Part shown: piece by piece, positions 1-57,580 of the stretch
How the letters are laid out: each line of letters starts with the position of its first letter
How positions within the stretch are numbered: position 1 is the first letter of the stretch
Source: Mobula hypostoma
Taxonomy: Eukaryota
NCBI RefSeq assembly: GCF_963921235.1
Contig: NC_086108.1
Span: 14,198,001-14,262,000, forward strand
Length of the DNA: 64,000 bases
Direction of reading: 5' to 3'
Position numbers and translations under genes: made by a program
The notes under the pieces: generated by a model
Told to the model about the DNA's origin: nothing
The model's input: the letters and a program-made list of their open reading frames with translations, nothing else
The model's database searches: none

Positions 1-1270
1 GGGAGCGGTGGTAGAAATTCACCATAACCACGAATTCCTGCAGGCCTTTGATTATGTTGGGTCGGGGGAAGTGGCGGACCGCGTCTACCTTGGCGGGCAG
101 TGGGGTTTCCCTGTCTTTAGTAATCCTGTGGCCCAGGAAGTCGATGGTGTCGAGTCCGAACTGGCATTTGGCCGGGTTGGTTGTAAGGCCGAATTCGCTC
201 AGGTGGGAGTAGAGCTGGCGGAGGTGGGACAGATGCTCCTGACGACTATTGCTGGCTATGAGGATGTCGTCCAAATAGATGAATGCAAAGTCCAGGTCGC
301 GTCCCACCGCGTCCATTAGCTGCTGGAACGTCTGTGCGGCATTCTTTAGACTGAACGGCATTCGGAGGAATTCGAAAAGTCCGAACGGGGTGGTGAGTGC
401 TGTTTTGGGGATGTCGTCCGGATGTACAGGGATTTGATGGTATCCCCAGACGAGGTCTACCTTGGAAAAGATCCTTGCGCCGTGTAGGTTTGCTGCGAAG
501 TCTTGAATGTGCGGCACAGGGTAGCGGTCTGGCGTTGTAGCTTCGTTCAGTCTGCGGTAGTCACCGCATGGTCTCCAGCCCCCTGTTGCCTTGGGCACCA
601 TGTGCAGGGGGGAGGCCCATGGGCTGTCGGACCATCATATGATCCTCAATTCCTCCATCTTTTTGAACTCCTCCTTCGCCAGTCGGAGTTTGTCTGGGGG
701 AAGCCTTCGAGCACGGGCGTGGAGTGGTGGTCCCTGGGTCGGGATGTGGTGCTGTACTCCGTGTCTGGGCATGGCTGCCATGAACTGCGGTGTCAGTACT
801 GATGGGAAATCTGCCAGGACCCTGGTGAATTCATTGTTGGACAGCGTGATGGAGTCCAGGTGTAGGGCTGGCAACTTTGCTTCACCCAGGGAGAACGTTT
901 GAAAAGTCTTGGGGTGGACTAATCGCTTCCCTTGCAGGTCGACCAGCAGGCTGTGGGCTCGTAGAAAATCTGCCCCCAGGAGTGGTTGGGCCACGGCGGC
1001 CAGTGTGAAGTCCCACGTGAACCGGCTGGAGCTGAACTGTAGCCGCACCGTGCGGGTGCCGTAGGTTCGTATTGTGCTGCCATTAGCGGCCCTCAGGGTG
1101 GGTCCCGGTTCTCTGTTGCGGGTGTCGTAACTCGCTGGAGGTAAGAAGCTGATCTCCGCTCCGGTGTCGACCAAAAAGCGGTGTCCTGACTGCTTGTCCC
1201 AGACATACGGGAGGCTGTCCTGATGGCCAGCCGCCGTAGCCGTCAGCGGCGGCTGGCCCTGGTGTTTCCC
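1..1270 (-). pseudogene. Gypsy pol (aspartic protease + reverse transcriptase N-part), disrupted
   Basis: ORF 635..1174 has VDTGAEISFLP and LLGADFL; the RT region downstream contains a stop. Confidence 0.85.
1225..1270 (-). other. Programmed -1 ribosomal frameshift signal at the gag-pol junction
   Basis: G GGA AAC heptamer in the gag frame, followed 5 nt later by a perfect 12-bp hairpin GGCCAGCCGCCG/CGGCGGCTGGCC; the -1 frame reads into LVDTGA. Confidence 0.8.
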
Positions 1271-1948
1271 GGGAATTTGCAGGGTGGTCTACAGCGGCGG
1301 GCCTCTGTGCCCCACTGCTGGTGGTAGAAGCACCATTGTTCATTGGGCTCCTCACTCCCGTCGCCGGGTTTTGTAGGCTCTGCTGCTGGGCCTGGTCTGG
1401 TCTGCTGTTGGGCACGTGGCTTGGTGATCTGTGCGACGGACGCCTCTCTCTCTTTCCTGGCATTCCACAGCGCATCTGCCCGGGCCGCCACCTCCCGGGG
1501 GTTGCTGAAATCTGCGTCGGACAGCAGGAGGCATATGTCCTCGGGCAGTTGCTCTAGGAACGCCTGCTCAAACATGAGACAGGGTTTGTGTCCTTCAGCC
1601 AGGGCCAGCATCTCGTTCATTAATGTCGACGGTGGCCTGTCTCCCAAACCATCCAGGTGCATTAAGCGGCGTGCTCGTTTGCGCCGTGAGAGTCTGAAAG
1701 TCTTTATGAGCAGGGCTTTGAATGCTGTGCATTTGCCCTCCTCCAGGGGGCAACTGTATAAACTCCTCAACTTGTGCAGCTGTCTCCTGGTCAAGGGAGC
1801 TCAGCACGTAGTAGTAGCGAGTGGACTCCAAGGTTATCTGCCGAATGTGGAATTGTGCTTCTGCTTGTTCGAACCACAGACGAGGTCGCAGCGCCCAAAA
1901 GCTTGGCAGTTTTAACGAAACTGCGTGAACAGATGCGGCGTCGGTCAT
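1243..1948 (-). pseudogene. Gypsy gag, frameshifted
   Basis: Split over ORFs 1595..2008 (MTDAASVHAVSLKLPSFW) and 1243..1794 (LGDRPPS, WCFYHQQWG..C..PC). Confidence 0.85.
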
Positions 1949-1972
1949 CTCTGGTCCAAATGTCGTTTGGGC

Positions 1973-1986
1973 CGTCGGGGTCACCA
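1973..1986 (-). promoter_or_regulatory. Primer binding site complementary to tRNA-Trp 3' end
   Basis: TGGTGACCCCGACG begins 2 nt after the LTR end. Confidence 0.85.
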
Positions 1987-1988
1987 TT

Positions 1989-2263
1989 TGTAGCGGTGTG
2001 CTACACACAGTGCTAAAATAACCACACGTAGTCGGTGAGTTAAAGTTGTGATGAAAGAGATTTATTCAAACTTCGCGGCCTGCTTTAAAGCCTTCCCGTT
2101 CCTGCCCTCCCTGGGCGGGACTGCTGTAGGGAATGCATATTCGCAGACCCTTCCCGCATGCGAGATTTTCCCATGCTGGTGAAGATGGCCTGGCGCCCTT
2201 TTAGGGGCTGGCCTCTCTGCCGGCGCGCGCCGGTTTGTGTGTGCTAGAAAGTGGGTCGCCACA
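1989..2263 (-). repeat. 5' LTR of the Gypsy element (275 bp)
   Basis: Inverted termini TGTGGCG...CGCTACA, AATAAA near 2062-2067 on the minus strand, adjacent PBS. Confidence 0.9.
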
Positions 2264-2428
2264 GTACCATCCAAAGTCATGAAATCTGTGTAAATTACAA
2301 AATAAGTGCAAAACGAAAAGTATAATGAGGTAAACAACAGGAATTCTGCAGATGCTGGAAATTCAAGCAACATACATCAAAGTTGCTGGTGAACGCAGCA
2401 GGCCAAGCAACATCTGTAGGAAGAGGTG

Positions 2429-2466
2429 CAGTCGACGTTTCAGGCCGAGACCCTTCGTCAGGACTA
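2429..2466 (-). ncRNA. Minimal type I hammerhead ribozyme motif, core intact
   Basis: UAGUC CUGACGA AGG-GUCUCGG-CCU GAAA CG UC GACUG: conserved core, stem I, stem II, palindromic ACGU in place of stem III. Confidence 0.85.
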
Positions 2467-2762
2467 ACTGAAGGAAGAGTGAGTAAGGGATTTGAAAGTA
2501 GGAGGGGGAGGGGGAGGTCCAAAATGATAGGAGAAGACAGGAGGGGGAGGGATAGAGCCGAGAGCTGGACAGGTGATAGGCAAAAGGGGATATGAGAGGA
2601 TCATGGGACAGGAGGTCCGGGAAGAAAGACAAGGAGGGGGGGGTGACCCAGAGGATGGGCAAGAGGTATATTCGGAGGGACAGAGGGAGAAAAAGGAGAG
2701 TGAGAGAAAGAATGTGTGCATAAAAATGAGTAACAGTTGGGGTACGAGGGGGAGGTGGGGCC

Positions 2763-3506
2763 TTAGCGGAAGTTAGAGAAGTCGATGTTCATGCCATCAG
2801 GTTGGAGGCTACCCAGACGGAATATAAGGTGTTGTTCCTCCAACCTGAGTGTGGCTTCATCTTTACAGTAGAGGAGGCCGTGGATAAACATGTCAGAATG
2901 GGAATGGGACGTGAAATTAAAATGTGTGGCCACTGGGAGATCCTGCTTTCTCTGGCGGACAGAGCGTAGATGTCCAGCAAAGCGGTCTCCCAGTCTGCGT
3001 CGGGTCTCGCCAATATATAAAAGGCCACATCGGGAGCACCGGACGCAGTATATCACCCCAGTCGACTCACAGGTGAAGTGATGCCTCACCTGGAAGGACT
3101 GTTTGGGGCCCTGAATGGTGGTAAGGGAGGAAGTGTAAGGGCATGTGTAGCACTTGTTCTGCTTACACGGATAAGTGCCAGGAGGGAGATCAGTGGGGAG
3201 GGATGGGGGGGACGAATGGACAAGGGAGTTGTGTAGGGAGCGATCCCTGCGGAATGCAGAGAGAGGAGGGGAGGGAAAGATGTGCTTAGTGGTGGGATCC
3301 CGTTGGAGGTGGCGGAAGTTACGGAGAATAATATGTTGGACCCGGAGGCTGGTGGGGTGGTAGGTGAGGACCAGGGGAACCCTATTCCTAGTGGGGTGGC
3401 GGGAGGATGGAGTGAGAGCAGATGTACGTGAAATGGGGGAGATGCGTTTAAGAGCAGAGTTGATAGTGGAGGAAGGGAAGCCCCTTTCTTTAAAAAAGGA
3501 AGACAT
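2763..3506 (-). pseudogene. PLE ORF 3' part: RT thumb, Cys linker, GIY-YIG endonuclease (5'-truncated)
   Basis: CKQNKCYTC linker; GVIYCVRC..C..LYIGETRRRL..RF..H; C-terminal LEEQHLI...GMN. Confidence 0.92.
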
Positions 3507-4002
3507 CTCCCTCGTCCTAGAATGAAAAGCCTCATCCTGAGAGCAGATGCGGCGGAGACGGAGGAATTATGAGAAGGGGATGACGTTTTTGCAAGAGACA
3601 AGGTGAGAAGAGGAATAGTCCAGACAGCTGTGAGGAGAGTCAGTGGGCTTATAGTAGACATCAGTGGATAAGCTGTCTCCAGATACAGAGGCAGAAAGAT
3701 CTAGAAAGGGGAAGGAGGTGTCGGAAATGGACCAGGTAAACTTTGCCTCCAACTTTCACCCTGCCTTCGAGTTTACCTGGTCCATTTCCGACACCTCCCT
3801 CCCCTTTCTAGATCTTTCTGTCTCTGTCTCTGGAGACAGCTTATCCACTGATGTCTACTATAAGCCCACTGACTCTCACAGCTGTCTGGACTATTCCTCT
3901 TCTCACCTTGTCTCTTGCAAAAACGCCATCCCCTTCTCATAATTCCTCCGTCTCCGCCGCATCTGCTCTCAGGATGAGGCTTTTCATTCTAGGACGAGGG
4001 AG

Positions 4003-4746
4003 ATGTCTTCCTTTTTTAAAGAAAGGGGCTTCCCTTCCTCCACTATCAACTCTGCTCTTAAACGCATCTCCCCCATTTCACGTACATCTGCTCTCACTCC
4101 ATCCTCCCGCCACCCCACTAGGAATAGGGTTCCCCTGGTCCTCACCTACCACCCCACCAGCCTCCGGGTCCAACATATTATTCTCCGTAACTTCCGCCAC
4201 CTCCAACGGGATCCCACCACTAAGCACATCTTTCCCTCCCCTCCTCTCTCTGCATTCCGCAGGGATCGCTCCCTACACAACTCCCTTGTCCATTCGTCCC
4301 CCCCATCCCTCCCCACTGATCTCCCTCCTGGCACTTATCCGTGTAAGCAGAACAAGTGCTACACATGCCCTTACACTTCCTCCCTTACCACCATTCAGGG
4401 CCCCAAACAGTCCTTCCAGGTGAGGCATCACTTCACCTGTGAGTCGACTGGGGTGATATACTGCGTCCGGTGCTCCCGATGTGGCCTTTTATATATTGGC
4501 GAGACCCGACGCAGACTGGGAGACCGCTTTGCTGGACATCTACGCTCTGTCCGCCAGAGAAAGCAGGATCTCCCAGTGGCCACACATTTTAATTCCACAT
4601 CCCATTCCCATTCTGACATGTCTATCCACGGCCTCCTCTACTGTAAAGATGAAGCCACACTCAGGTTGGAGGAACAACACCTTATATTCCGTCTGGGTAG
4701 CCTCCAACCTGATGGCATGAACATCGACTTCTCTAACTTCCGCTAA
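4003..4746 (+). pseudogene. PLE ORF 3' part (mirror copy): RT thumb, Cys linker, GIY-YIG endonuclease
   Basis: 247-aa ORF that differs from 2763..3506 at only two residues. Confidence 0.92.
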
Positions 4747-5048
4747 GGCCCCACCTCCCCCTCGTACCCCATCTGTTACTCATTTTTATGCACACATTCT
4801 TTCTCTCACTCTTCTTTTTCTCCCTCTGTCCCTCTGAATATACCTCTTGCCCATCCTCTGGGTCACCCCCCCCCCCTTGTCTTTCTTCCCAGACCTCCTG
4901 TCCCATGATCCTCTCGTATCCCCTTTTGCCTATCACCTGTCCAGCTCTCGGCTCTATCCCTCCCCCTCCTATCTTCTCTTATCATTTTGGATCTCCCCCT
5001 CCCCCTCCCCCTCCTACTTTCAAATCCCTTACTCACTCTTCCTTCAGT

Positions 5049-5086
5049 TAGTCCTGACGAAGGGTCTCGGCCTGAAACGTCGACTG
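5049..5086 (+). ncRNA. Minimal type I hammerhead ribozyme motif, core intact
   Basis: tagtc CTGACGA agggtctcggcct GAAA cg TC gactg. Confidence 0.85.
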
Positions 5087-5399
5087 CACCTCTTCCTACA
5101 GATGCTGCTTGGCCTGCTGCGTTCACCAGCAACTTTGATGTATGTTGTTAGTATAATGAGGTAGTGTTCATAGACTCAAAGATCAGCACAACACAGAAAC
5201 AGGCTCTTTGGTCCTTCTAGCCCGTGCCAACTATTATTCTGCCTGGTCCTTTTGACATGCATCCAGAACATAGCCCTTCATACCTCTCCCATCTATGTAC
5301 TTATCAAAACTTCTCTTAAATGTTGAAATCGAGCTCACGTGCACCATGCTCTCACAGCCCTCTGAGTGAAGAAGTTGCCCTTCATATTCTGCTTAAACT

Positions 5400-6090: not shown

Positions 6091-7220
6091 GACACAAGAA
6101 ACAGCAGATACTGGAATTTGGAGGAAGAAATGAACTGCTAGAGGAACTTGGCCGTTCAGACAGCTTCTGTGGAGGGAAATGCAGAGCTGAAGTTTTGATT
6201 CGAGAGCCTTCATCAGGACTGAAAGATAGAGGGAAGATAACTGGTATAATGAGGTGAGGGGAAGGGATGAAACAAGAGCTGGCAGGTGATAGTGGATCCA
6301 GATGAGGAAGGATGACAGACAGGATGGGGGATGGGAGTGTGGCTATAGTTACAGAGGCTGGGAGGTGATTGGTGGAGATGACTCCTGATGTTGCCTTCTC
6401 TATTTCACTGAGCACCTTCAAACATGGCCAGCTGAAGCTCCTGGGTACCAGCCATTTTAATTCTCCTCTCCATTCCAACCTCAAGGCAATGGCAAACCAC
6501 TTCTGTTAGAAAAATTTGCCAAGAACAAGCATGGTCATGGAAAGACCATGATTGCCTATATCACATATCATGGCATATAACGAACGAGCAAACCTTATTC
6601 CAACACCAACCTGTCAGTCTGTCCTCAGCCTTTTCCACATCATTGGTGAGGCTAAACACAAATTAGAGAAAAAACATTTCATTTTCTGCTGGTGTATTCG
6701 AGAAACCAACAACATGAGCATTGAATTATTCAACCTTTGACTAACTGTTCACCTCTGTCCCTTTTCTCTCTCCTCCTGATCTGCTCAGTTTTTACTAAAT
6801 TCCCCAATTTTCATCACCTTGTTTCTTTTCCCTTTCCCCTCCTCCACCCATTCCATTTTGTCCATCACCCACACACTGCTCACATTGGGACTTTCCCCTA
6901 CTGTTCCCACCTGCCCCCCTCTATCTATCTACCTCCCTTGATTCCTTGCTCCACCTTCCTCTCCTATCAGATTCTACCAACTGCTGCCCCTTCTGTTCTC
7001 CACCTCTCACCTCCCAGTCTCTTGTGCTATTTCCATTCCTCTTTTCCTCCATCTGCTCATCACCCCTCTGCCAGCTCTTGTCCCACCCCTTCCCCTCACA
7101 GCTTTATACTGATTGTCTCTCTCAATCTTTGAGAAAGGTCTTGACTTGAGAGGACACTTTCCATTTCCCTCCACAATGCTACCTGACCTGCTGAGTTATT
7201 CTGGCATTTAGTTTATTGTT
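6091..7220. mobile_element. Old Penelope-like element with head-to-head inverted architecture
   Basis: Minus-strand 3' end with decayed hammerhead (about 6185-6221); plus-strand GIY-YIG end and 3' region; direct repeat ATGCCCTGGCA at 6080-6090 and 7226-7236. Confidence 0.75.
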
Positions 7221-13030: not shown

Positions 13031-13357
13031 AGGGTATTGGAGTTTCTGTATCAGGCTGTGATGCAACCAGTCAATATACTCTCCACCATACATCTATAGA
13101 AGTTTTTCAAAGTTTTAGATGATATTCCAAATGTACACAAACTTCTAAGGAAGTAGAGGTGCTGCTGTGCTTTCTTCATAATTGCACTTACATGCTGGGC
13201 CCAGGACACGCCCTTAGAAATGATAACACCAAGGAATTTAAAGTTGCTGACCCTCTCCACCTCTGAGCCCCTGATGAGGACTGGCTCATGGATCTGTTTT
13301 CTTCCTCATGAAGTCAATAATCAGCTCCTTGGGCTTGCTGACATTGAGTAAGAGGTT

Positions 13358-14106
13358 ACGCTGGGGTGATATACTGTGTCCGGTGCTCCCGATGTGGCCT
13401 TCTATATATTGGCGAGACCCGACGCAGACTGGGAGATCATTTCGTTGTACACCTACGCTCTGTCCGCCAGAGAAAGCAGGATCTCCCAGTGGCCGCATAT
13501 TTTAATTCCACGTCCCATTCCCATTCTGATATGTCTATCCACAGCCTCCTCTACTGTAAAGATGAAACCACACTCAGGTTGGAGGAACAACACCTTATAT
13601 TCCATCTGGGTAGCCTCCAACCTGATGGCATGAACATTGACTTCTCAAACTTCCACTAGTGCCCCACCTCCCCCTTGTACCCCATCTGTTATTTATTTAT
13701 TTATTTATATATACACACACACATTCTTTTTCTCTCTCTCCTTTTTCTCCCTCTGTCCCTCTCACTATACCCCTTGCCCATCCTCTGTGCTTTATCCCCC
13801 CCTCCCCCTTTTCTTTCTCCCTAGGCCTCCTGTCCCATGATCCTCTCATATCCCTTTTGCCAATCAACTTTCCAGCTCTTGGCTCCATCCCTCCCCCTCC
13901 TGTCTTCTCCTATCATTTCAGATCTCCCCCTCCCCTTCCCACTTTCAAATCTCTTACTAGCTCTTCCTTCAGTTAGTCCTGACGAAGGGTCTCGGCCCAA
14001 AACGTCGACTGAACCTCTTCCTAGAGATGCTGCCTGACCTGCTGTGTTCACCAGCAACTTTTATGTGTGTTGCTTGAAATTCCAGCATCTGCAGATTTCC
14101 TCGTGT
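13358..14106 (+). mobile_element. 5'-truncated Penelope-like element (GIY-YIG end + 3' region with tail)
   Basis: ORF 13366..13659 IYCVRC..LYIGETRRR; direct repeat TTGAGTAAGAG(G/A)TT at 13344-13357 and 14107-14120. Confidence 0.92.
13974..14011 (+). ncRNA. Hammerhead motif, core mutated (GAAA to AAAA)
   Basis: tagtc CTGACGA agggtctcggccc AAAA cg TC gactg. Confidence 0.65.
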
Positions 14107-22708: not shown

Positions 22709-22794
22709 ACACAAAAAATGCCGGAGGTGCTCAGCATCTATCGAAAAGAGCAAAACAGTCAACGTTTTGGGCCGAGACCCTTCATCAAGACCAT
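22709..22794 (-). mobile_element. 86-bp PLE-derived mini element consisting of little more than a decayed hammerhead and the 3' end
   Basis: Exact 14-bp direct repeat CAGGTATAGGGAAC at 22695-22708 and 22795-22808. Confidence 0.85.
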
Positions 22795-24346: not shown

Positions 24347-26301
24347 AAGGATAGTCAGCATGGCTTTGTGCATGGTATGTCATGTCTAACCAATATTATA
24401 GAGTTTTTCAAGGAAGTTACCAGGAAAATTGATGAAGGCGAGGCAGTGGATATGCAGAGATTTTACAAAAACTTTTGACAAGGTCCTACGATGGGAGGTT
24501 GGTCATAAAGGTTCAGTCGCTTGGCATTCAAGATGAGTAGTAAATTGGATTAAGCATGGGCTTCACAGAAGAAGCCAGAGAGTGGTTGTAGATGGTTGCC
24601 TCTCTGACTGGAGGCCTGTGGCAAGCGATATGCTGCAGAGGTCAGTGGCTCTGTTGTTGTTTGTCATCCATATCAATGATCTGGATGATAATGTGGTTAA
24701 CTGGATCAGCAAGATTGGGGATGTAGTGGACAGGGAGGAAGACTAGCAAAGCTTGGAGCAGGATCTGGACCAGCTTGGAAAATGGGCTGGAAAATGGTAA
24801 ATGAAGTTGATTGCAGTCAAGTGTGAGGTGTTTCACTTTGGGAGGACAAACCAGGGTAGGTCTTACACAGTGAGCAGTAGGGCACTGAGGGGTGTGACAG
24901 AACAGAGGGATCTGTGAATACCGATCCATAATTTCTTGAAAGTGGTATCACAGGAAGAAAACTTCTGACATATTGGCCTTCATAAATCAATGCATTGAGT
25001 ACAGGAACGGTATGTTATGTTGAAATTTATGAGGCCTGCTTTGGAGTATTGTGTGCACCTACCTACAGGAAAGATGTAGATAACATTGAAAGAATGCAGA
25101 GCAAATGCTTCTGGGACTTGAGAACCTGAATTGTAGGGAAGGGCTGAATAGGTTAGGACTCCATTTCCTAGAGCATTGGAGAGAGAGTGGAGATTTGACA
25201 GAGATATACAAAATTAAGAGGGGTATAGTTTGGTTAAGTGCAAGCAGGCTTTTTCCACCGAGGTTGGGTGAGACTATAACTTGAGGTCATGGGTTAAGGG
25301 TGAAAGGTAAAATGAGGAACATGGTGAGTGTGTGAAACGAACTACCAGCAGAAGGGTGGATGTACTGTAGGTTTGATTTCAACATTTAAAAGATATTTAG
25401 ACAGGTACATGGATGGGAGGGCATTGCAGGGCTATGGTCCAGGTGCAGGTTGATGAGACTAGGCAGATTCATGGTTTGGCATAGAGTGGAGGTGCTTAAG
25501 AACCTCTTTCTGTGCTGTAGTGTCCCATGACTCTGTGAGGGGTCTCAACCTGAAACATCAACTGTTCATTTTCCTCCACAGATGCTGCCTGACCTGCTGA
25601 GTTCTTCCAGCATTTGTGAGTTACCCGATTTCTCCTCCCAGTAATGTCTTGTAGCAGCAGGGTAACCTTTATACATGATCTATGAAGATGGTCAATTATT
25701 GCCATCTAATCATGTTAACAACAGCATCTGGCTGGTGATTTTGAGAGTCTAACTAAACTGCAATGTTCTGTCTTCCTCCTTGACTTAGTCGTGTTCGGCC
25801 TGCTGTGCTTGGTAGATGGGGAGAAAAAAGCACCTTGAAAAGTGGTGGTGAGGAGGAGGAATGTAAGAGATGCATGCTTGCACCATCTGCATTGTGTAAA
25901 TCAGCAATGTGTTTAAAGGGAAATAGGATGTTAGAAGAGTGGTTAGTCATAAGCAACTTCTGTGTTCCCAGTGGCTGAGGCGTTCAGCAACAGTGAAGCC
26001 TCTCACCCAGAGTATTGCACATATGCATGTTTGGCACCAGTCACTGCTGTTTACCAGTTCACCTTGTCCTGCAAGAAAGAAGGAACTGTGTCAGTCAGTG
26101 AATGTCATGTCTGCTAGATGTCGCTGAAGAGGTAGAAGTTGGAAGATGTCTTTGTGAGTTGTAGAGGAATGATTAGTGTGTGAAGGCAGTGAGGAAGAGG
26201 TATGAATTGTGAATGGTAGTTCTTTCTCATTTGGTGAATGGGGCTGTGTTCTATGGAGTGATGGGTGAGGCTTAGGTTGAATTTGGGGATGAAGTAGTAG
26301 T

Positions 26302-28144
26302 AGTCGCGTAGGGAGCGATCCCTGCGGAAAGCAAGGGAGGGAAGGGAAAGATGTGCTTAGTGGTGGGATCCCGTTGGAGGTGGCGGAAGTTACGGAGAAT
26401 TATATGTTGGACCCGGAGGCTGCTGTGGTGGTAGGTGAGGACAAGGGGAACCCTATTCCTAGTGGGGTGGTGGGAGGATGGAGTGAGAGCAGATGTGCGT
26501 GAAATGGGGGAGATGCGTTTGAGAGCAGAGTTGATGGTGGAGGAAGGGAAGCCCCTTTCTTTAAAAAAGGAGGACATCTCCTTCGTCCTGGAATGAAAAG
26601 CCTCATCCAGATGCGGCGGAGACGGAGGAATTGCAAGAAGGGGATGGCATTTTTGCAAGAGACAGGGTGAGAAGAGGAATAGACCAGGTAGCTGTGAGAG
26701 TCCATAGGCTTATAGTAGACGTCAGTAGATAAGCTGTCTCTGGAGATAGAGACAGAAAGATCAAGAAAGGGGATGGAGGTGTTGGAAATGGACCAGGTAA
26801 ACTTGAGGGCAGGGTGAAAGTTGGAGGCAAAATTAATGAAGTCAATGAGCTCAGCATGCATGCAGAAAGCAGCGCCAATGCAGTCGTCGATGTAGCGAAG
26901 GAAAAGTAGGGGACAGATACCAGTATAGGCTTGGAACATGGATTGTTCCACAAAGCCAATAAAAAGGCAGGCATAGCTGGGACCCATATGGGTGCCCATG
27001 GCTGCACCTTTAGTTTGGAGGAAGTGGGAGGAGCCAAAGGAGAAATTATTAAGAGTAAGGATTAATTCCGCTGGACAGAGCAGAATGGTGGTGGAGGGGA
27101 ACTGGTTGGGTCTGGAATCCAAAAAGATGTGGAGAGCTTTGAGACCTTCCTGGTGGGGGATGGAAGTATGTAGGGACTGGAAATCCATAGTTCAAATAAA
27201 GCAGTGGGGGCCAGGGAACTTAAAATCATCGAAAAAATTCAGAGCGTGAGAAGTGTCACGAACATAGTTAACGCGACTCCCTTGTCCATTCGTTCCTCCC
27301 CCATCCCTTCCCACCGATCTCCCTCCCGGCACTTATCCTTGTAAGCGGAACAAGTGCAACACATGCCCTTACACTTCCTCCCTCACCACCATTCAGGGCC
27401 CCAGACAGTCCTTCCTGGTGAGGTGACACTTCATCTGTGAGTTGGCTGGGGTGATATACTGCGTCCGGTGCTCCTGACGCGGCCTTCTATATATTGGTGA
27501 GACCCGACACAGGCTGGGAGGCCATTTTGCTGAACACCTACGCTCTGTCTGCCAGAAAAAGCAGGATCTCCCAGTGGCCACACATTTTAATTCCACATCC
27601 CATTCCCATTCTGATATGTCTATCCACAGCCTCCTCTACTGTAAAGATGAAGCCACACTCAGGTTGGAGGAACAACACCTTATATTCCGTCTGGATAGCC
27701 TCCAACCTGATGGCATGAACATTGACTTCTCTAAGTTCCATTAATGCCCCACCTCCCCTTCGTACCCCATCCGTTATTTATATATTTATTATTATTATTA
27801 TTATTATTATTTTTCTCTCTCTCCTTTTTCTCCCTCTGTCCCTCTCACTATACTCCTTGCCCATCCTCTGGGCTTCCCCCCCCCCTTTCTTTCTCCCTAG
27901 GCTTCCTGTCCCATGATCTTCTCATATCCCCTTTGCCAATCACCTGTCCAGCTCTTGGCTCCATCCCTCCCCCTCCTGTCTTCTTCTATCATTTTGGATC
28001 CCCCTCCCCCTCCCACTTTCAAATCTCTTACTAACTCTTCCTTCAGTTAGTCCTGATGAAGGGTCTCAGCCCGAAACGTCAACCGAACCTTTTCCTAGAG
28101 ATGCTGCCTGGCCTGCTGCGTTCACCAGCAATTGTTATGTGTGT
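26302..28144. mobile_element. Penelope-like element with inverted 5' segment (RT core on minus, GIY-YIG and 3' end on plus)
   Basis: Minus: MDFQSLHTSIP, GAAMGTHMGPSYA, LRYIDD; plus from 27271: Cys linker, YIGET, hammerhead motif. Confidence 0.92.
28048..28085 (+). ncRNA. Hammerhead motif, core intact, stem I weakened
   Basis: tagtc CTGATGA agggtctcagccc GAAA cg TC aaccg. Confidence 0.7.
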
Positions 28145-30199
28145 CACAAGGATTCTGACAGGATTTAAAGGCTTGAGTTATTAGGAGAGACTGGAAAGGC
28201 TGGTTCTGTTTTCTCTGGAGTAAAGGAGGATGAACGGTGACCTTATACAGGTTTACAAAATCATTCTGTGCCATCTCTAGCTTAATTACATCCTTCTTTT
28301 ATAATGGCATATCGCATTCTTGCAGAAGTGTTTTAAACCGTGCTGTAGTACAAAGTCTCTGTCGAGCTGACTGTGATACAACTGTGCATTTCTGCAGACA
28401 GAGTGATACGATACATAGTTGTAAGTACCAGCATGTAGCGCATCCCTGTTAGGATTGTAGTGATGTTTTGTTTCTATAGAGTGAGTGTCAGGTTAGACTA
28501 ATGTCAGCAGTAGGGAAAACACCAGAATCTATTGTTAGGAAAGTGGTAGCAGAGCACTTGGAAAACAATAACAAAAATAGGTGGTCACACAACACAGAGA
28601 AAGTCCAAGATTCCCATTTAAACTTGCCCCATTTTAGAATTAGAATCTGGTTTATTTTCACTGTATGGTACGTCATGAAACTTGTTGTTTTGTGGAAACA
28701 AAGACAGAATTACTATAAATTACAAAATAGACAATGCAAAAATAGAATAATGAAGTCGTGTTGTTGAACTGTTCAGAAATCTGATGTGGAGGGGCGAAGC
28801 TGTTGACCTGTAGGTCTTTAGACTTCTGTACTTTCTTCCTGATGGCAGTAATGAGAAGAGAGCATGTCTTGCATGGGAGTGGGAGCCTTCAGTGATGGAT
28901 ATCACTTTCTTGAGGAACTGCCTTATGTGGATGACCTTTTGGTCAATATCCCTTTTTCTCTCCATGTACCTGACCAGTACCTTTTAAATACTGTTAATGT
29001 ACTTGCCTCAAAATGTTCTATATAAGTACTCTGTGCAAGAAAATGTACTTCAGGCTCCTATTAATTCTCTCCCCTCTCCCCTCTCTCATCTTAAACCTAC
29101 GCCGTATAGTTCTTGATTTCCGAACCCCGGGGAGAAAAGAGGGCATTCACCCTATCTATGCTCCTCATAACTTTATACAACTCTATAAGATCACTCCTCA
29201 TTCTCCAAGACTCTAATAAATAAATTCTTAGCTTGGCCAACTCAGTACCTCAGGTTCTGGTAACATCCTTGTAAATCTCTGCACTCTTTCTGGCTTAATG
29301 TCACCTTTCTTATATTAGGGTGACAAGAACTGAACATGACATTCCAAGTATGACCTCACCAATGTCGTGTGCAACTGCAACATTATATCCCAACCTCCAC
29401 AATCTATAACTCAGGAGATTCTGCAGAAGCTGGAAATCCTGAGTATGCTGGAGGAATTCCTCTTCAAATGCTGCCTGATGCATTGAGTTCCTCCAGCATT
29501 TTGTACTTTACCCTGCCCTGACTGATGAAAACGATTGTGATTGCAGTGATGTTTCTATAGAGGGAGCATCTCCCCCACAGACCAGTTAGATTGACGTCAG
29601 TATAAGGAAAATACTAGAAGAATCTATTGTCAGGACAGTGGGAACCGAGCACTTACAAATAATAACTCTAATAGGTAAAGTCAACATACAGTTAAGTATG
29701 AAAAGTGCCTTTTGACTAACCTGTTCGTGTTTTGAGGTTGTGACGAGCAGAATGGGTAAGAGCAAATCAGCTGATCTGTATTTGTACTTCAAGAAGGTCT
29801 TTGATGAGGTCCCATATGAGACACTTCAATCAAAGTAAAGGGCATGACACTAAGTGTAAATTACTGGACAGGATTGAATATTGATGGACAGGGTACATTC
29901 AGAGTGAGCAGCTCATTCCTGGGCTGTGAGACTATTGCAAGGGGAATTGCTGCTGAGGCTTCCAGCTGTTCAGAATCTATGACAATAATCTAAATGAGGG
30001 ATCAGGCAGTTTAAATGGTTTGGCATGGACTAGGTGGGCCAAAGGACCTGTTTCTGTGCTGAACTTTTCTATGACTCTATATCCAGATTTGCTGATAATA
30101 CAAAGCCAGTGGAAGTGGATGTGACAGGGCCCCAGACTGATTTCAAGTGAATTTAGGGAGGCTAAGTTAAGATCAAAAGGATTGCAAAGACAAAACAAG

Positions 30200-38752: not shown

Positions 38753-41600
38753 CTAGTCCCACCGACTTGCACTCAGCCCATAACCCTCCATTCCTTTCCT
38801 GTCCATATAGCTGACAAGTTTAACTTTAAATGACAACATCGAACCTGCCTCAACCACTTCTGCTGGCTCGTTCCACACAGCTACCACTCTCTGAGTGAAG
38901 AAGTTCCCCCTCATGTTACCCCTAAATTTTTGCCCTTTAACTCTCAACTCATGTCCTCTTGTTTGAATCTCCCCCATTCTCAATGGAAAAAGCCTATCCA
39001 CGTCAACTCTATCTATCCCTCTCATAATTTTAAATACCTCTATCAAGTCCCCCCTCAACCTTCTACGTCCCAAAGAATAAAGACCCAACTTGTTCAACCT
39101 TTCTCTGTAACTTAGGTGATGAAACCCAGGTAACATTCCAGTAAACCTTCTCTGTACTCTCTCTATTTTGTTGACATCTTTCCTATAATTTGGTGACCAA
39201 AACTGTACACAATACTCCAAATTTGGCCTCACCAATGCCTTGTACAATTTCAACATTACTTCCCAACTCCTATACTCAATGCTCTGATTTATAAAGGCCA
39301 GCATACCAAAAGCTTTCTTCACCACCCTGTCCACATGAGATTCCACCTTCAGGGAACTATGCACCATTATTCCTAGATCCCTCTGTTCTACTGCATTCTT
39401 CAATGCCCTACCATTTACCATGTATGTCCTATTTTGATTAGTCCTACCAAAGTGTAGTACCTCACATTTATCAGCATTAAATTCCATCTGCCACCTTTCA
39501 GCCCACTCTTCTAACTGGCCTAAATCTCTCTGCAAGCTTCGAAAACCTACTTCATTATTCACAACTCCACCTATTTTAGTATCATCTGCATACTTACTCA
39601 TCCAATTTACCACCCCATCATCCAGATCATTAATGTATATGACAAATAACTTTGGACCCAGTACAGATCCCTGAGGCACACCACTAGTCACCGGCCTCCA
39701 ATCTGACAAACAGTTTTCCACCACCATTCTCTGGCGTCTCCCATCCAGCCACTGCTGAATCCATTTTACTACTTCAATATTAATACCTAACGATTGAACC
39801 TTCCTAACCAGCCTTCCATATGGGACCTTGTCAAAGGCCTTACTGAAGTCTATATAGACAACATCCACTGTTTTACCCTTGTCAACATCCCTAGTAACAT
39901 CTTCAAAAAATTCAATAGGATTTGTCAAACATGACCTTCCACGCACAAATCTATGTTGACTGTTCCTAATCAGACCCTGTCTATCCAGATAATTATATAT
40001 ACCATCTCTAAGAATACTTTCCGTCATTAGCCACCACTGACGTCAAACTCACAGGCCGATAATTGCTAGGTTTACTCTTAGAACCCTTTTTAAACAATGG
40101 AACAACATGAGCAATACGCCAGTCCTCCGGCACCATCCTCGTTTCTAATGAAATTTGAAATGTTTCTGTCAGAGCCCCTGCTATTTCCACACTAACTTCC
40201 CTCAATGTCCTAGGGAATATCCTGTCAGGACCCGGAGACTTATCCGCTTTTATATTCCTTATAAGCTCCAGTACTACTACTGCTTTAATCATCATACTTT
40301 CCATAACTTCCCTACCCGTTTCCATTATCTTACACGATTCAATATCCTTCTCCTTAGTGAATACCGAAGAAAAGAAATTGTTTAGAATCTCCCCCATCAC
40401 TTTTGGCTCCACACATAACCGTCCACTCTGATTCTCTAAGGGACCAATTTTATCCCTCACTATCCTTTTGCTATTTATATAACAGTAGAAACCCTTGGGA
40501 TTTATTTTCACCTTACTTGCCAAAGCAACCGCATATCTTCTCTTAGCTTTTCTAATTTTTTTCTTAAGATTCTTTTCACATTCTTTATATTCCTCGAGCA
40601 CCTCGTTTACTCCATGCTGTCTATATTTATTGTAGATCTCTCTTTTCTTCTGAACCAAGCTTCCAATATCTCTTGGAAACCATGGCTCTCTCAAACTTTT
40701 AACCTTTCCTTTCAACCTAACAGGAACGTAAAGATTCTGTACTCACAAAATTTCACCTTTAAATGACCTCCATTTCTCCATTACATCCTTCCCATAAAAC
40801 AAATTATCCCAATCCACTCTTCTAAATCCTTTCGCATCTCCTCAAAATTAGCCTTTCTCCAATCAAAAATCTCAACCCTGGCTCCAGATCTATCCTTCTC
40901 CATAATTATATTGAAACTAATAGCATTGTGATCACTGGACCCGAAGTGCTCCCCACCACAAACCTCCGTCACCTGACCTATCTCATTCCCTAACAGGCGA
41001 TCCAACACTGCCCCTTCTCTCATTGGTACTTCTATGTATTGCTGCAAAACCTATCTTGCACACATTTTACAAACTCCAAACCATCCAGCCCTTTTACAGA
41101 ATGGGTTTCCCAGTCTATGTGTGGAAAATTAAAATCTCCCACAATCACAACCTCGTGCCTACTACTAATATCTGCTATCTCCTTACAAATTTGCTCCTCC
41201 AATTCTCGCTCCCCATTAGGTGGTCTATAATACACCCCCATAAGAGTTACTGCACCCTTCCCATTCCTCAATTCCACCCAAATAGCCTCCCGAGACGAGC
41301 CCTCTAATCTATTCTGCCAGAGCACCGCTGTAATATTTTCTCTGACAAGCAATGCAACCCCTCCCCCTCTTGTCCCTCCGATTCTGTCACACCTGAAGCA
41401 ACTACATCCTGGAATATCTAGTTGCCAATCACACCCCTCCTGTAACCATGTTTCACTAATAGCTACCATATCATACTTCCAGATATCAATCCATGTTCAT
41501 CCAGCTCATCCACCTTTCTTACAATGCTCCTAGCATTAAAATAAATGCACTTAAGAAATTTTCCACCTCTTACTCTCTGTTTATCACTAACTGTGCAAAC
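38753..41600 (-). pseudogene. CR1 ORF2 (APE endonuclease + RT), frameshifted
   Basis: ORFs 41032..41469 (ISETWL, GDFNFP), 40781..41047 (SDH), 40008..40715 (SPGPD), 38753..40027 (PQGSVLGP, YADD). Confidence 0.92.
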
Positions 41601-46865: not shown

Positions 46866-47024
46866 ACACAAGAGATACTGCAGATGCTTGAGCAACACAC
46901 AAAACTGCTGGAAATTTTCAGGGTCCTGATGAAGAGTCTCCTGCTTGCAACGTCAACTATTTGTTCCCCTTCACGGATACTGCCTGACCTGCTGAATTCC
47001 TCCAGTATTTTGCAGAGCCTGCTC
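46866..47024. mobile_element. 159-bp palindromic PLE-derived mini element with decayed hammerhead
   Basis: Reverse 3' tail on the left, gtcCTGATGA...GCAAcgTC and 3' end on the right; exact 14-bp direct repeat AAGACTCACTCCAG at 46852-46865 and 47025-47038. Confidence 0.85.
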
Positions 47025-54616: not shown

Positions 54617-55136
54617 CACTCAGTGGCCACTTTATTTGTTACATCTGTACAATTACTCAGTAATGCAGATGTCTAATCAGCCAATCATGTGGCAGCAAAC
54701 CAATATATAAAAGCAGAATAGGGGAAGAAATGTGATCTAAGTGACTTTGACTGTGGAATGATTGTTGGTGCCGGACAGGGTGGTTTGAATATCTCAAAAA
54801 ATGCAGATCTCCTGGGATTTTCACACGCAACAGTCTCCAGAGTTTACAGAGAATGGTGCAAAAAAAAAATCCATTAAGTGGCAGTTCTGTGGGGGAAAAC
54901 ACCTTGTTAATGAGAGAGGTCAGAGGAGAATGGCCAGACTGGTTCAAGCTAACAGGAAGGTGACAGTAATTCAAATAACCACGCATTCCAACAGCAGTTG
55001 TGCAGAAGAACATGTCTGAATGCACAACACATTGAACCATGAAGTGAATGGGCAACATCAGCAGAAGACCATAAGCATATATTCAGTGGCCATGTTATCA
55101 GGTACAGGAGGTACTTAATGAAGTGACCACTGAATG
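54617..55136 (+). mobile_element. Tc1-derived MITE (duplicated in reverse at about 56956-57490)
   Basis: TA-CACTCAGTGGCCACTTTATT...AATGAAGTGACCACTGAATG TIRs; transposase N-terminal remnant MIVGARQGG..ADLLGFSH..VSR. Confidence 0.85.
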
Positions 55137-56541: not shown

Positions 56542-57580
56542 CTGAAAGAACAAGGACCTCTGCCAACTTGCCCCATTTCCATAATGAAATAGTGATTAAT
56601 GTTGTGAAGGTTGGTTTAAGAACCAAATCGTTAAAGAGAAAAAGCTGCTCTTTAATCCGGTGATGTGAGACTTTCAGACTTGTGTATCTCCTGCTCAATG
56701 GTACCTGTGAAAAGATGGCAAAGAGTGGATGGTGGGAATCTTTGATGATGTGGCCTTCTTGAGATACAATGGATAGTGGAATGGAATGTGTTTATGATGT
56801 ATTGGTGAGAGACCAGCTGGAATATTGTGAGTAGTTCCGTTATCATACTGTAGGAAGGATATGAATAAGCTGGCGAGGGTGCAGAGAAGGCTCACAAGGA
56901 TGATGTTGGAACTGCTGCCAGTATATTGCTTCTTGGATTCTCACCATCCACTAATCATGCAGTGGTCACTTCATTAAGTACCTCCTGTACCTGATAACAT
57001 GGCCACTGAATATATGCTTATGGTCTTCTGCTGATGTTGCCCATTCACTTCATGGTTCAACGTGTTGTGCATTCAGACATGTTCTTCTGCACAACCACTG
57101 TTGGAATGCGTGGTTATTTGAATTACTGTCACCTTCCTGTTAGCTTGAACCAGTCTGGCCATTCTCCTCTGACCTCTCTCATTAACAAGGTGTTTTCCCC
57201 CACAGAACTGCCACTCAATGGATTTTTTTTGCACCATTCTCTGTAAATTCTGGAGACTGTTGCGTGTGAAAATCCCAGGAGATCTGCGTTTTTTGAGATA
57301 TTCAAACCACCCTGTCTGGCACCAACAATCATTCCACAGTCAAAGTCACTTAGATCACATCTCTTCCCCTATTCTGCTTTTATATATTGGTTTGCTGCCA
57401 CATGATTGGCTGATTAGACATCTGCATTAATGAGTAATTGTACAGATGTAACAAATAAAGTGGCCACAAATAAAGTAACAAATAAAGTGTATGTTCTTTA
57501 GGTCAGGGGGTTTTCCATCTCTGCCACATTTTTCCTTCAATAAATAAGAACTTCCCATCCCATCTGTGGTTGATTAGTTG

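Follow-up and report, generated by a model that had tools for sequence, protein, structure and literature searches.

We analysed a 64,000-nucleotide (nt) stretch of the Mobula hypostoma genome (contig NC_086108.1, positions 14,198,001 to 14,262,000; hereafter the window, numbered from its first letter). Near its left end, two 5'-truncated copies of a Penelope-like element (PLE), each carrying a minimal hammerhead ribozyme motif, lie head to head as a palindrome. The locus comprises the following features.

2319..2332 (+): left target-site duplication, 14 bp; the 14-mer occurs in the window only at 2319 and 5150
2333..3741 (-): left arm, a 5'-truncated PLE that finishes at the long-tail (distal) 3' end and shows 98-99% complementarity with the right arm
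2333..2367 (-): tail of ~34 nt, present in the left arm only according to the arm alignment
2429..2466 (-): left-arm hammerhead, predicted cut between 2434 and 2433
2763..3566 (-): C-terminal open reading frame (ORF) remnant of the left arm, with the reverse transcriptase (RT) thumb region, a Cys linker and GIY-YIG (Pfam GIY-YIG E 7e-4, below the curated cut-off)
3742..3768 (+): unpaired centre of 27 nt, element sequence found in the right arm only, at the head-to-head junction
3742..5149 (+): right arm, a 5'-truncated PLE with the proximal (short) 3' end
3943..4746 (+): C-terminal ORF remnant P0001 (267 aa), with a Cys-rich linker and a GIY-YIG/CCHH endonuclease
5049..5086 (+): right-arm hammerhead, predicted cut between 5081 and 5082; core 5054-5060 and 5074-5081, stem II 5062-5073, ACGU 5077-5080
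5150..5163 (+): right target-site duplication, a direct repeat of the left 14-mer

An initial annotation of this DNA had described minimal type I hammerheads at 2429-2466 (-) and 5049-5086 (+). A degenerate 28-nt pattern and inspection of the stems confirmed both, including stem I (UAGUC/GACUG) and the ACGU palindrome in each arm. The two 38-mers read, in order, stem I, CUGACGA, an unpaired A, stem II, GAA, ACGU and C17. Stem II, which that annotation had not given, is GGGU-CUCG-GCCU in both arms, and the unpaired A preceding it, between A9 and 10.1, lies at 5061 and 2454. The core (C3-U4-G5-A6-N7-G8-A9, G12-A13-A14, A15.1-U16.1 and H17) is complete in both arms. The motifs lie ~310 nt after the stop of the GIY-YIG ORF and 63-101 nt before the element ends.

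The degenerate pattern matched five window positions (mean over 100 shuffles, 0.00): exactly at 2434-2461 (-), 5054-5081 (+) and 28053-28080 (+), with one mismatch at 13979 (+) and with two at 22761 (-). A profile seeded with seven window copies, including that at 25527 and leaving out the right arm, returned all seven sites listed previously (7/7), as well as relics at 25527 (+) and 7120 (+) and a tail-only piece at 29457. Apart from the right arm, recovery of the previously noted sites (the left arm and, outside the palindrome, 13974, 28048, 22757, 46923 and 6185) is a match by construction.

Metazoan PLEs, including Xena, Poseidon and Neptune of fish, carry minimal hammerhead ribozymes (min-HHRs) that resemble these motifs in their type I topology and 5-bp stem I, in the unpaired base after A9, in a palindromic 15.2-16.2 without loop III, in their terminal-repeat position, and in occurring as many lone decayed copies and as opposite-strand pairs (PMC4209133). 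Stem II has 4 bp and a CUCG loop here, compared with 7-8 bp in Schistosoma (PMC4209133). We have little doubt that the motifs are minimal type I hammerheads of the PLE min-HHR class. Two observations speak against this assignment. The Infernal search proposed with the initial annotation failed to support it, as hammerhead families account for 0 of 13 Rfam matches at E<=10. In addition, 10.1-11.1 is G-U in both arms instead of the usual G-C, and G10.1-C11.1, which lies outside the catalytic boxes, is highly conserved among PLE min-HHRs (PMC4209133); copies 13974, 28048 and 22757 have G-C. We infer that the Rfam miss reflects the absent stem III, and PLE hammerheads were originally found with a dedicated descriptor (PMC4209133). 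The top Rfam matches were microRNA models placed on the palindrome centre, far below the gathering score, and were rejected as hairpin artefacts. The finding is real, correctly named and ordinary.

Judged by its predicted protein, the host is an endonuclease-positive (EN+) PLE of cartilaginous fish, with RT followed by a C-terminal GIY-YIG. The Pfam scan gave GIY-YIG at E 4.5e-4 and RT at E 0.002 (copy 26303), both under the Pfam cut-offs, with a third element copy reaching into RT. Among named proteins, the nearest relatives come from whale shark, zebra shark and bamboo shark, at 57-67% identity; next come unnamed proteins with both RT and GIY-YIG (18 matches at E<=1e-20). The CCHH residues C177, C180, H199 and H221 are invariant in the protein alignment, as are C134, C139 and C166 of the Cys linker, with C142 nearly so (10 aligned proteins). 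A zinc-finger-like Cys linker between RT and endonuclease marks Neptune and Nematis (bioRxiv 10.1101/2021.04.23.441226) and sets the protein apart from Anolis Poseidon (PMC11167929), and only Neptune and Poseidon were reported from vertebrates (Li et al. 2026, bioRxiv 10.64898/2026.07.22.740005). On the linker and this survey, the clade is probably Neptune. The zebra shark protein reads through the 3' region, where LMKGLRPKRQ aligns with LMKGLSPKRQ translated from the hammerhead of copy 28048 (9/10 residues), 378 nt past the end of the endonuclease as compared with 328 nt in copy 28048. This suggests that the zebra shark element has the same motif at the same place.

The window holds seven hammerhead-bearing copies besides the arms.

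6185..6222 (-): decayed copy of an older subfamily, G12A
7120..7212 (+): strongly decayed copy that the initial annotation lacked, profile E 3.7e-10
13974..14011 (+): copy with G12A in a 5'-truncated, long-tailed element at ~13357-14106, flanked by an 11-bp duplication (13344 and 14107)
22756..22793 (-): decayed copy, C3U, G12A and C17U
25527..25564 (+): decayed copy, likewise absent from the initial annotation
28048..28085 (+): copy with an intact core and damaged stem I, in the element 26303-28143, which has a 5' inversion and a short end
46921..46959 (+): decayed copy, A13C and damaged stem II

All 11 core positions are kept in 3 of the 9 hammerhead-bearing copies, namely the two arms and 28048, and G12 has become A in copies 13974, 22757 and 6185. 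In the element 26303-28143, the inverted 5' segment and the remainder do not overlap (26303-27268 minus, 27272-28143 plus), an arrangement that twin priming would be expected to give. Its 3' end is short, and a TAG-like short repeat lies at its left edge; a target duplication was looked for around it and none was seen.

The palindrome is a single insertion event, and the hammerhead is duplicated because this one insertion landed as a mirror-image pair. The arms are 1.2% apart (17/1373 columns; 16-17 substitutions and 2 indels). Their divergence from the other two young 3' copies is 10-11%, and 38 differences from both of these, over 691 columns, are common to the arms. The unpaired 27-nt centre is continuous with element sequence in copy 26303-27268, and the ~34-nt tail of the left arm is present in copy 13974 and absent from copy 28048. 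The shared differences would also fit an assembly artefact or a later DNA-level duplication, and long palindromes are difficult to assemble. However, the 14-bp direct target duplication encloses the whole palindrome, the tail is found on the left arm only and the 27 nt on the right arm only, and the arms differ by the substitutions and indels given above, so we regard such an origin as very improbable.

The initial annotation stressed that the cores are intact in both arms, an emphasis that carries no functional weight. The 38-nt hammerhead stretch of the left arm is identical to that of the right, and at ~1.2% arm divergence the chance of this is P ~0.64; given one insertion, the identity does not speak for selection. 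As products of that one insertion the arms do not count as independent evidence, and they do not make up a dimer pair, because they lie on opposite strands and one transcript carries one sense hammerhead and its complement. Cooperation of the two arms as a hammerhead dimer at the locus, which their intact and identical cores might recommend, is therefore extremely unlikely. Strand geometry excludes a dimer in cis, with a single sense motif per transcript. The sense motif would instead form a near-perfect duplex with the antisense copy (-164.8 kcal/mol over 81 nt, as opposed to -3.1 for the ACGU self-duplex). A dimer in trans would require convergent transcripts, each ending ahead of the opposite arm.

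How the insertion arose may be read from its asymmetries. Simple snap-back of the complementary DNA (cDNA) would account for the small centre loop and leave the extra tail unexplained, whereas two independent cDNAs would account for the tail and leave unexplained why two 1.4-kb copies break off no more than 27 nt apart. A combined route would begin with priming at the proximal site on one target strand, followed by cDNA snap-back; the other strand would then prime at the distal site and anneal to the snap-back strand. This route fits the nicking and extension of both strands in vitro (PMC11167929) and the self-priming put forward in Arkhipova et al. 2013 (PMC3846280). We suggest tentatively, at somewhat less than even confidence and from one locus, that the palindrome records in vivo two-strand, two-start-site priming of the kind described in vitro for the Anolis protein, followed by cDNA snap-back. 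Published PLE insertions likewise show head-to-head inversion, a one-sided tail of 30-40 bp and a short target duplication (bioRxiv 10.1101/2021.04.23.441226; PMC3846280). Unlike the published layout, the inverted copy is here nearly as long as the direct one (~1.4 kb each), and no full ORF or direct pseudo-long terminal repeat (pLTR) lies between the copies. The palindrome thus illustrates cleanly how one insertion can draw on both 3' start sites.

The initial annotation predicted a cut ~100 nt upstream of the tail end. This holds for the left arm (101 nt) and copy 13974 (100 nt), and fails for the right arm (66-68 nt) and copy 28048 (63 nt). The four distances fit two start sites of reverse transcription one tail-length apart. 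In Anolis carolinensis Poseidon, too, there are two 3' end points past the hammerhead, separated by the length of the tail (Frangieh et al. 2024, PMC11167929). The Anolis ORF starts inside the hammerhead (PMC11167929), whereas here no open frame runs from the equivalent codon in the young copies. Between the hammerhead and the long-tail end (14025-14098; 2343-2417 (-)), a long stem with an inner hairpin is predicted. The short 3' end maps to the 3' strand of this inner hairpin, and the long end lies immediately past the outer stem.

Approximately 40,000 contigs from four public sequencing runs (X1, X5, X19 and X22) were matched to 2320-2800 (481 nt), excluding contigs below 82% identity; X19 gave only 39 contigs, and no run with the sequence is catalogued as RNA. 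The counts given here are from the rows listed (19 of 956 loose-end rows, 40 of 97 variant rows and 15 of 33 joints). Similarity breaks before 2429 in 109 (X1), 59 (X5), 440 (X22) and 1 (X19) contigs, and behind 2464-2465 in 22+58 (X5) and 445 (X22). These breaks, among the largest rows listed, are the two edges of stem I, indicating that diverged relatives keep the motif while their flanks change. Agreement behind 2465 is low (0.40-0.43), and some contigs that break there may be short copies starting at stem I. Loose ends also occur at the distal end of the family, 2331-2332 (35+85 contigs in X1, 57 in X5 and 257 in X22).

Only 1 of the 40 variant rows listed falls inside the motif. It concerns position 11.1, where U or C occurs, each able to pair with G10.1; C makes up 20% (X1), 29% (X5) and 59% (X22) of summed depth. 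All six X1 changes at a plus-strand C (2 C>T, 3 C>A and 1 C>G) lie outside the motif, so that no G of the hammerhead, G5, G8 and G12 included, is listed as varying at a level of at least 4% in X1. Simple CpG decay should strike G12 as often as 11.1, and in X1 position 11.1 is polymorphic with ~80% U. The X1 tally is our own bookkeeping on depth-weighted contigs. X1 and X22 also contain single low-depth contigs that join 2465 back to 2333 with 16-20 other letters between, and X5 has a similar single low-depth joint from 2462 to 2343. These back-joined contigs may be tandem ~133-nt units of hammerhead and tail, resembling retrozymes.

On the reading that we consider most likely, selection maintains the motif in the source elements, whereas copies decay neutrally once inserted. 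The number of core mismatches in the window and the 3 intact cores of 9 fit neutral decay after insertion, leaving selection to the source elements. Self-cleavage processing the RNA of this family is plausible, and we lean slightly towards an in vivo role for cleavage in the source elements. In the published dimer model, a tandem transcript has to supply two copies of the same sense (PMC4209133; PMC6765202), and PLE min-HHRs are described as cutting weakly and only as multimers (PMC4209133). We envisage that a lone motif would be unable to form stem III and would fold into an inactive rod or into a hairpin with upstream sequence. The cut after GUC would occur only once a pair of same-sense motifs is joined by ACGU/ACGU pairing, for instance in the transcript of a tandem source element, and would probably be assisted by the protein of the element. 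A likely use would be trimming unit-length RNA, or its 5' end, from tandem transcripts. In the RNA that is copied, the 3' hammerhead would have to be uncut or re-ligated, because reverse transcription starts 63-68 or 100-101 nt past the cut. The two motifs of the palindrome would be inert passengers. A precedent for assistance by protein is the Anolis Poseidon hammerhead, which cut only in the presence of the protein of its element, with C3/G8 rescue (PMC11167929).

Folding predictions are in part consistent with such an inactive monomer. In the isolated 38-mer, pair probabilities are 0.55-0.98 for stem I and 0.87-0.97 for stem II, and the predicted fold favoured is a rod in which G5-G8 pairs with the CGUC strand (-11.0 kcal/mol compared with -7.0 for the open fold). 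The folding z-score of the 38-mer is unremarkable (-1.24). The best two-strand fold from ViennaRNA, which does not model the core, is a rod duplex and not a hammerhead dimer. In the right arm the upstream sequence supplies a competing structure.

5035..5065 (+): predicted competing hairpin between the upstream pyrimidine run and the 5' half of the hammerhead, pair probability 0.80-0.86

This hairpin was not seen in copy 28048, and selection for it is unsupported: of 100 shuffles of the upstream 30 nt, 5 (right arm), 9 (copy 13974) and 85 (copy 28048) suppress stem II equally.

Several results weigh against cleavage by a selected hammerhead. All four young copies (the two arms, 13974 and 28048) run past the cut site to the downstream end. 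The rows listed for the contigs show no pile-up of ends at the predicted cut, though contigs cannot show RNA ends; one X1 contig starts at 2434, the cut position, and as 1 of 9226 it was given no weight. In native context the predicted probability of the hammerhead stems is <=0.03. The window copies show no excess conservation of the core, which has 14/88 mismatches (16%) compared with 20-21% elsewhere: 44/216 in the rest of the motif (p 0.42 versus the core) and 51/248 in the tail (p 0.43), counted over 8 window copies with the left arm omitted as a duplicate of the right and the tail-only piece 29457 omitted. Only the upstream 30 nt, which is partly non-homologous, is less well conserved than the core in these copies. 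The G12 tally holds for X1 only, with 2/4 C>T places in X5 and 7/10 in X22 outside the rows listed. Finally, 8/9 tested dimer elements of Xenopus failed to cleave (bioRxiv 10.64898/2026.07.22.740005).

These results raise the alternative that the hammerhead-derived motif no longer cuts here and is retained in the pLTR to act as a promoter, to bind protein or to position RT. The read-through of the cut site by all young copies, the similar conservation of core and downstream tail among the window copies and the frequency of U11.1 among contigs are all in keeping with it. So is the Anolis hammerhead, whose mutants were without effect on insertion in vitro and at which no reads ended (PMC11167929), as are the Naiad elements, which spread without hammerheads (bioRxiv 10.1101/2021.04.23.441226). 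Against it, the homology boundaries match stem I to the base, the 11.1 variant retains its pair, G12 is not listed as varying in X1, and the Anolis motif did cut once protein was present (PMC11167929). We consider loss of cutting possible, though unlikely. The locus leaves the question of the role of PLE hammerheads unmoved, since its motifs are unable to work together as a dimer. With ~40,000 contigs available, it is feasible to count across the genome where copies start and end with respect to the cut, and how subfamilies change.

A splicing signal was also considered, owing to the sequence that follows the cut.

5087..5104 (+): pyrimidine run followed by CAG-ATG, 20 nt past the cut; a candidate splice acceptor and the 5' side of the predicted tail hairpin

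Here the hammerhead would lie inside an intron of the pLTR 5' untranslated region (5'-UTR), CUGAY would serve as the branch site, and, with the cut placed before the acceptor, splicing and self-cleavage would compete. In most copies the motif is succeeded by a stretch of pyrimidines that ends in AG, and a diverged subfamily keeps this pattern with different letters. In Drosophila Penelope, the hammerhead directly adjoins the 3' end of a pLTR intron (PMC4209133), and Craig et al. suggest that a 5'-UTR intron is common to other PLEs (bioRxiv 10.1101/2021.04.23.441226). However, the entire 3' region is pyrimidine-rich on the strand of the motif, the AG also belongs to the predicted tail hairpin, and in both arms and copy 13974 the frame opened by the ATG after it closes within 17 codons. 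The branch A would be 44 nt from the acceptor, and no joint or loose end occurs at 2414 among the rows listed. We therefore judge this intron improbable. A wider scheme, in which one source RNA would be spliced for translation, left intact as RT template or destroyed by protein-triggered self-cleavage, seems if anything a shade less probable. The 20-nt stretch after the hammerhead was found in 4 viral and 96 metagenome loci, 0/100 of which had an upstream hammerhead or BLAST similarity to the element.

Returning to the min-HHR assignment, PLE-derived type I hammerheads also occur in animal non-LTR retrozymes, including those of one chondrichthyan genome (bioRxiv 10.64898/2026.07.22.740005). 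We rejected a non-LTR retrozyme identity for the palindrome, as the locus is an inverted pair with ORF remnants and not a tandem non-coding array. Within partial literature coverage, no paper on this PLE family was found, and the species tables of the 2026 preprint may already include it. The literature search on chondrichthyan PLE hammerheads, branch-point overlap and Penelope twin priming gave nothing specific beyond that preprint. The words 'shark', 'Callorhinchus', 'Leucoraja' and 'skate' are absent from the two supplement files of PMC4209133 that were searched.

The palindrome appears to be inserted into an older repeat (2264-2332 and 5150-5200), possibly the 3' end of a long interspersed nuclear element (LINE). 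To its left, 1-2263 (-) is a fragment of a Gypsy-type LTR element with an aspartyl protease match (E 1.7e-6) and an LTR-like TG...CA stretch at ~1989-2263 adjoining a TGGTGAC that resembles a primer-binding site. The fragment stops 55 nt from the PLE insertion, to which it appears unrelated. Elsewhere in the window, a further inverted pair of 98% identity (54623-55136 / 56956-57467) derives from a sequence other than this PLE, and a LINE-type RT ORF lies at 38756-40042 (-) (E 5e-25).

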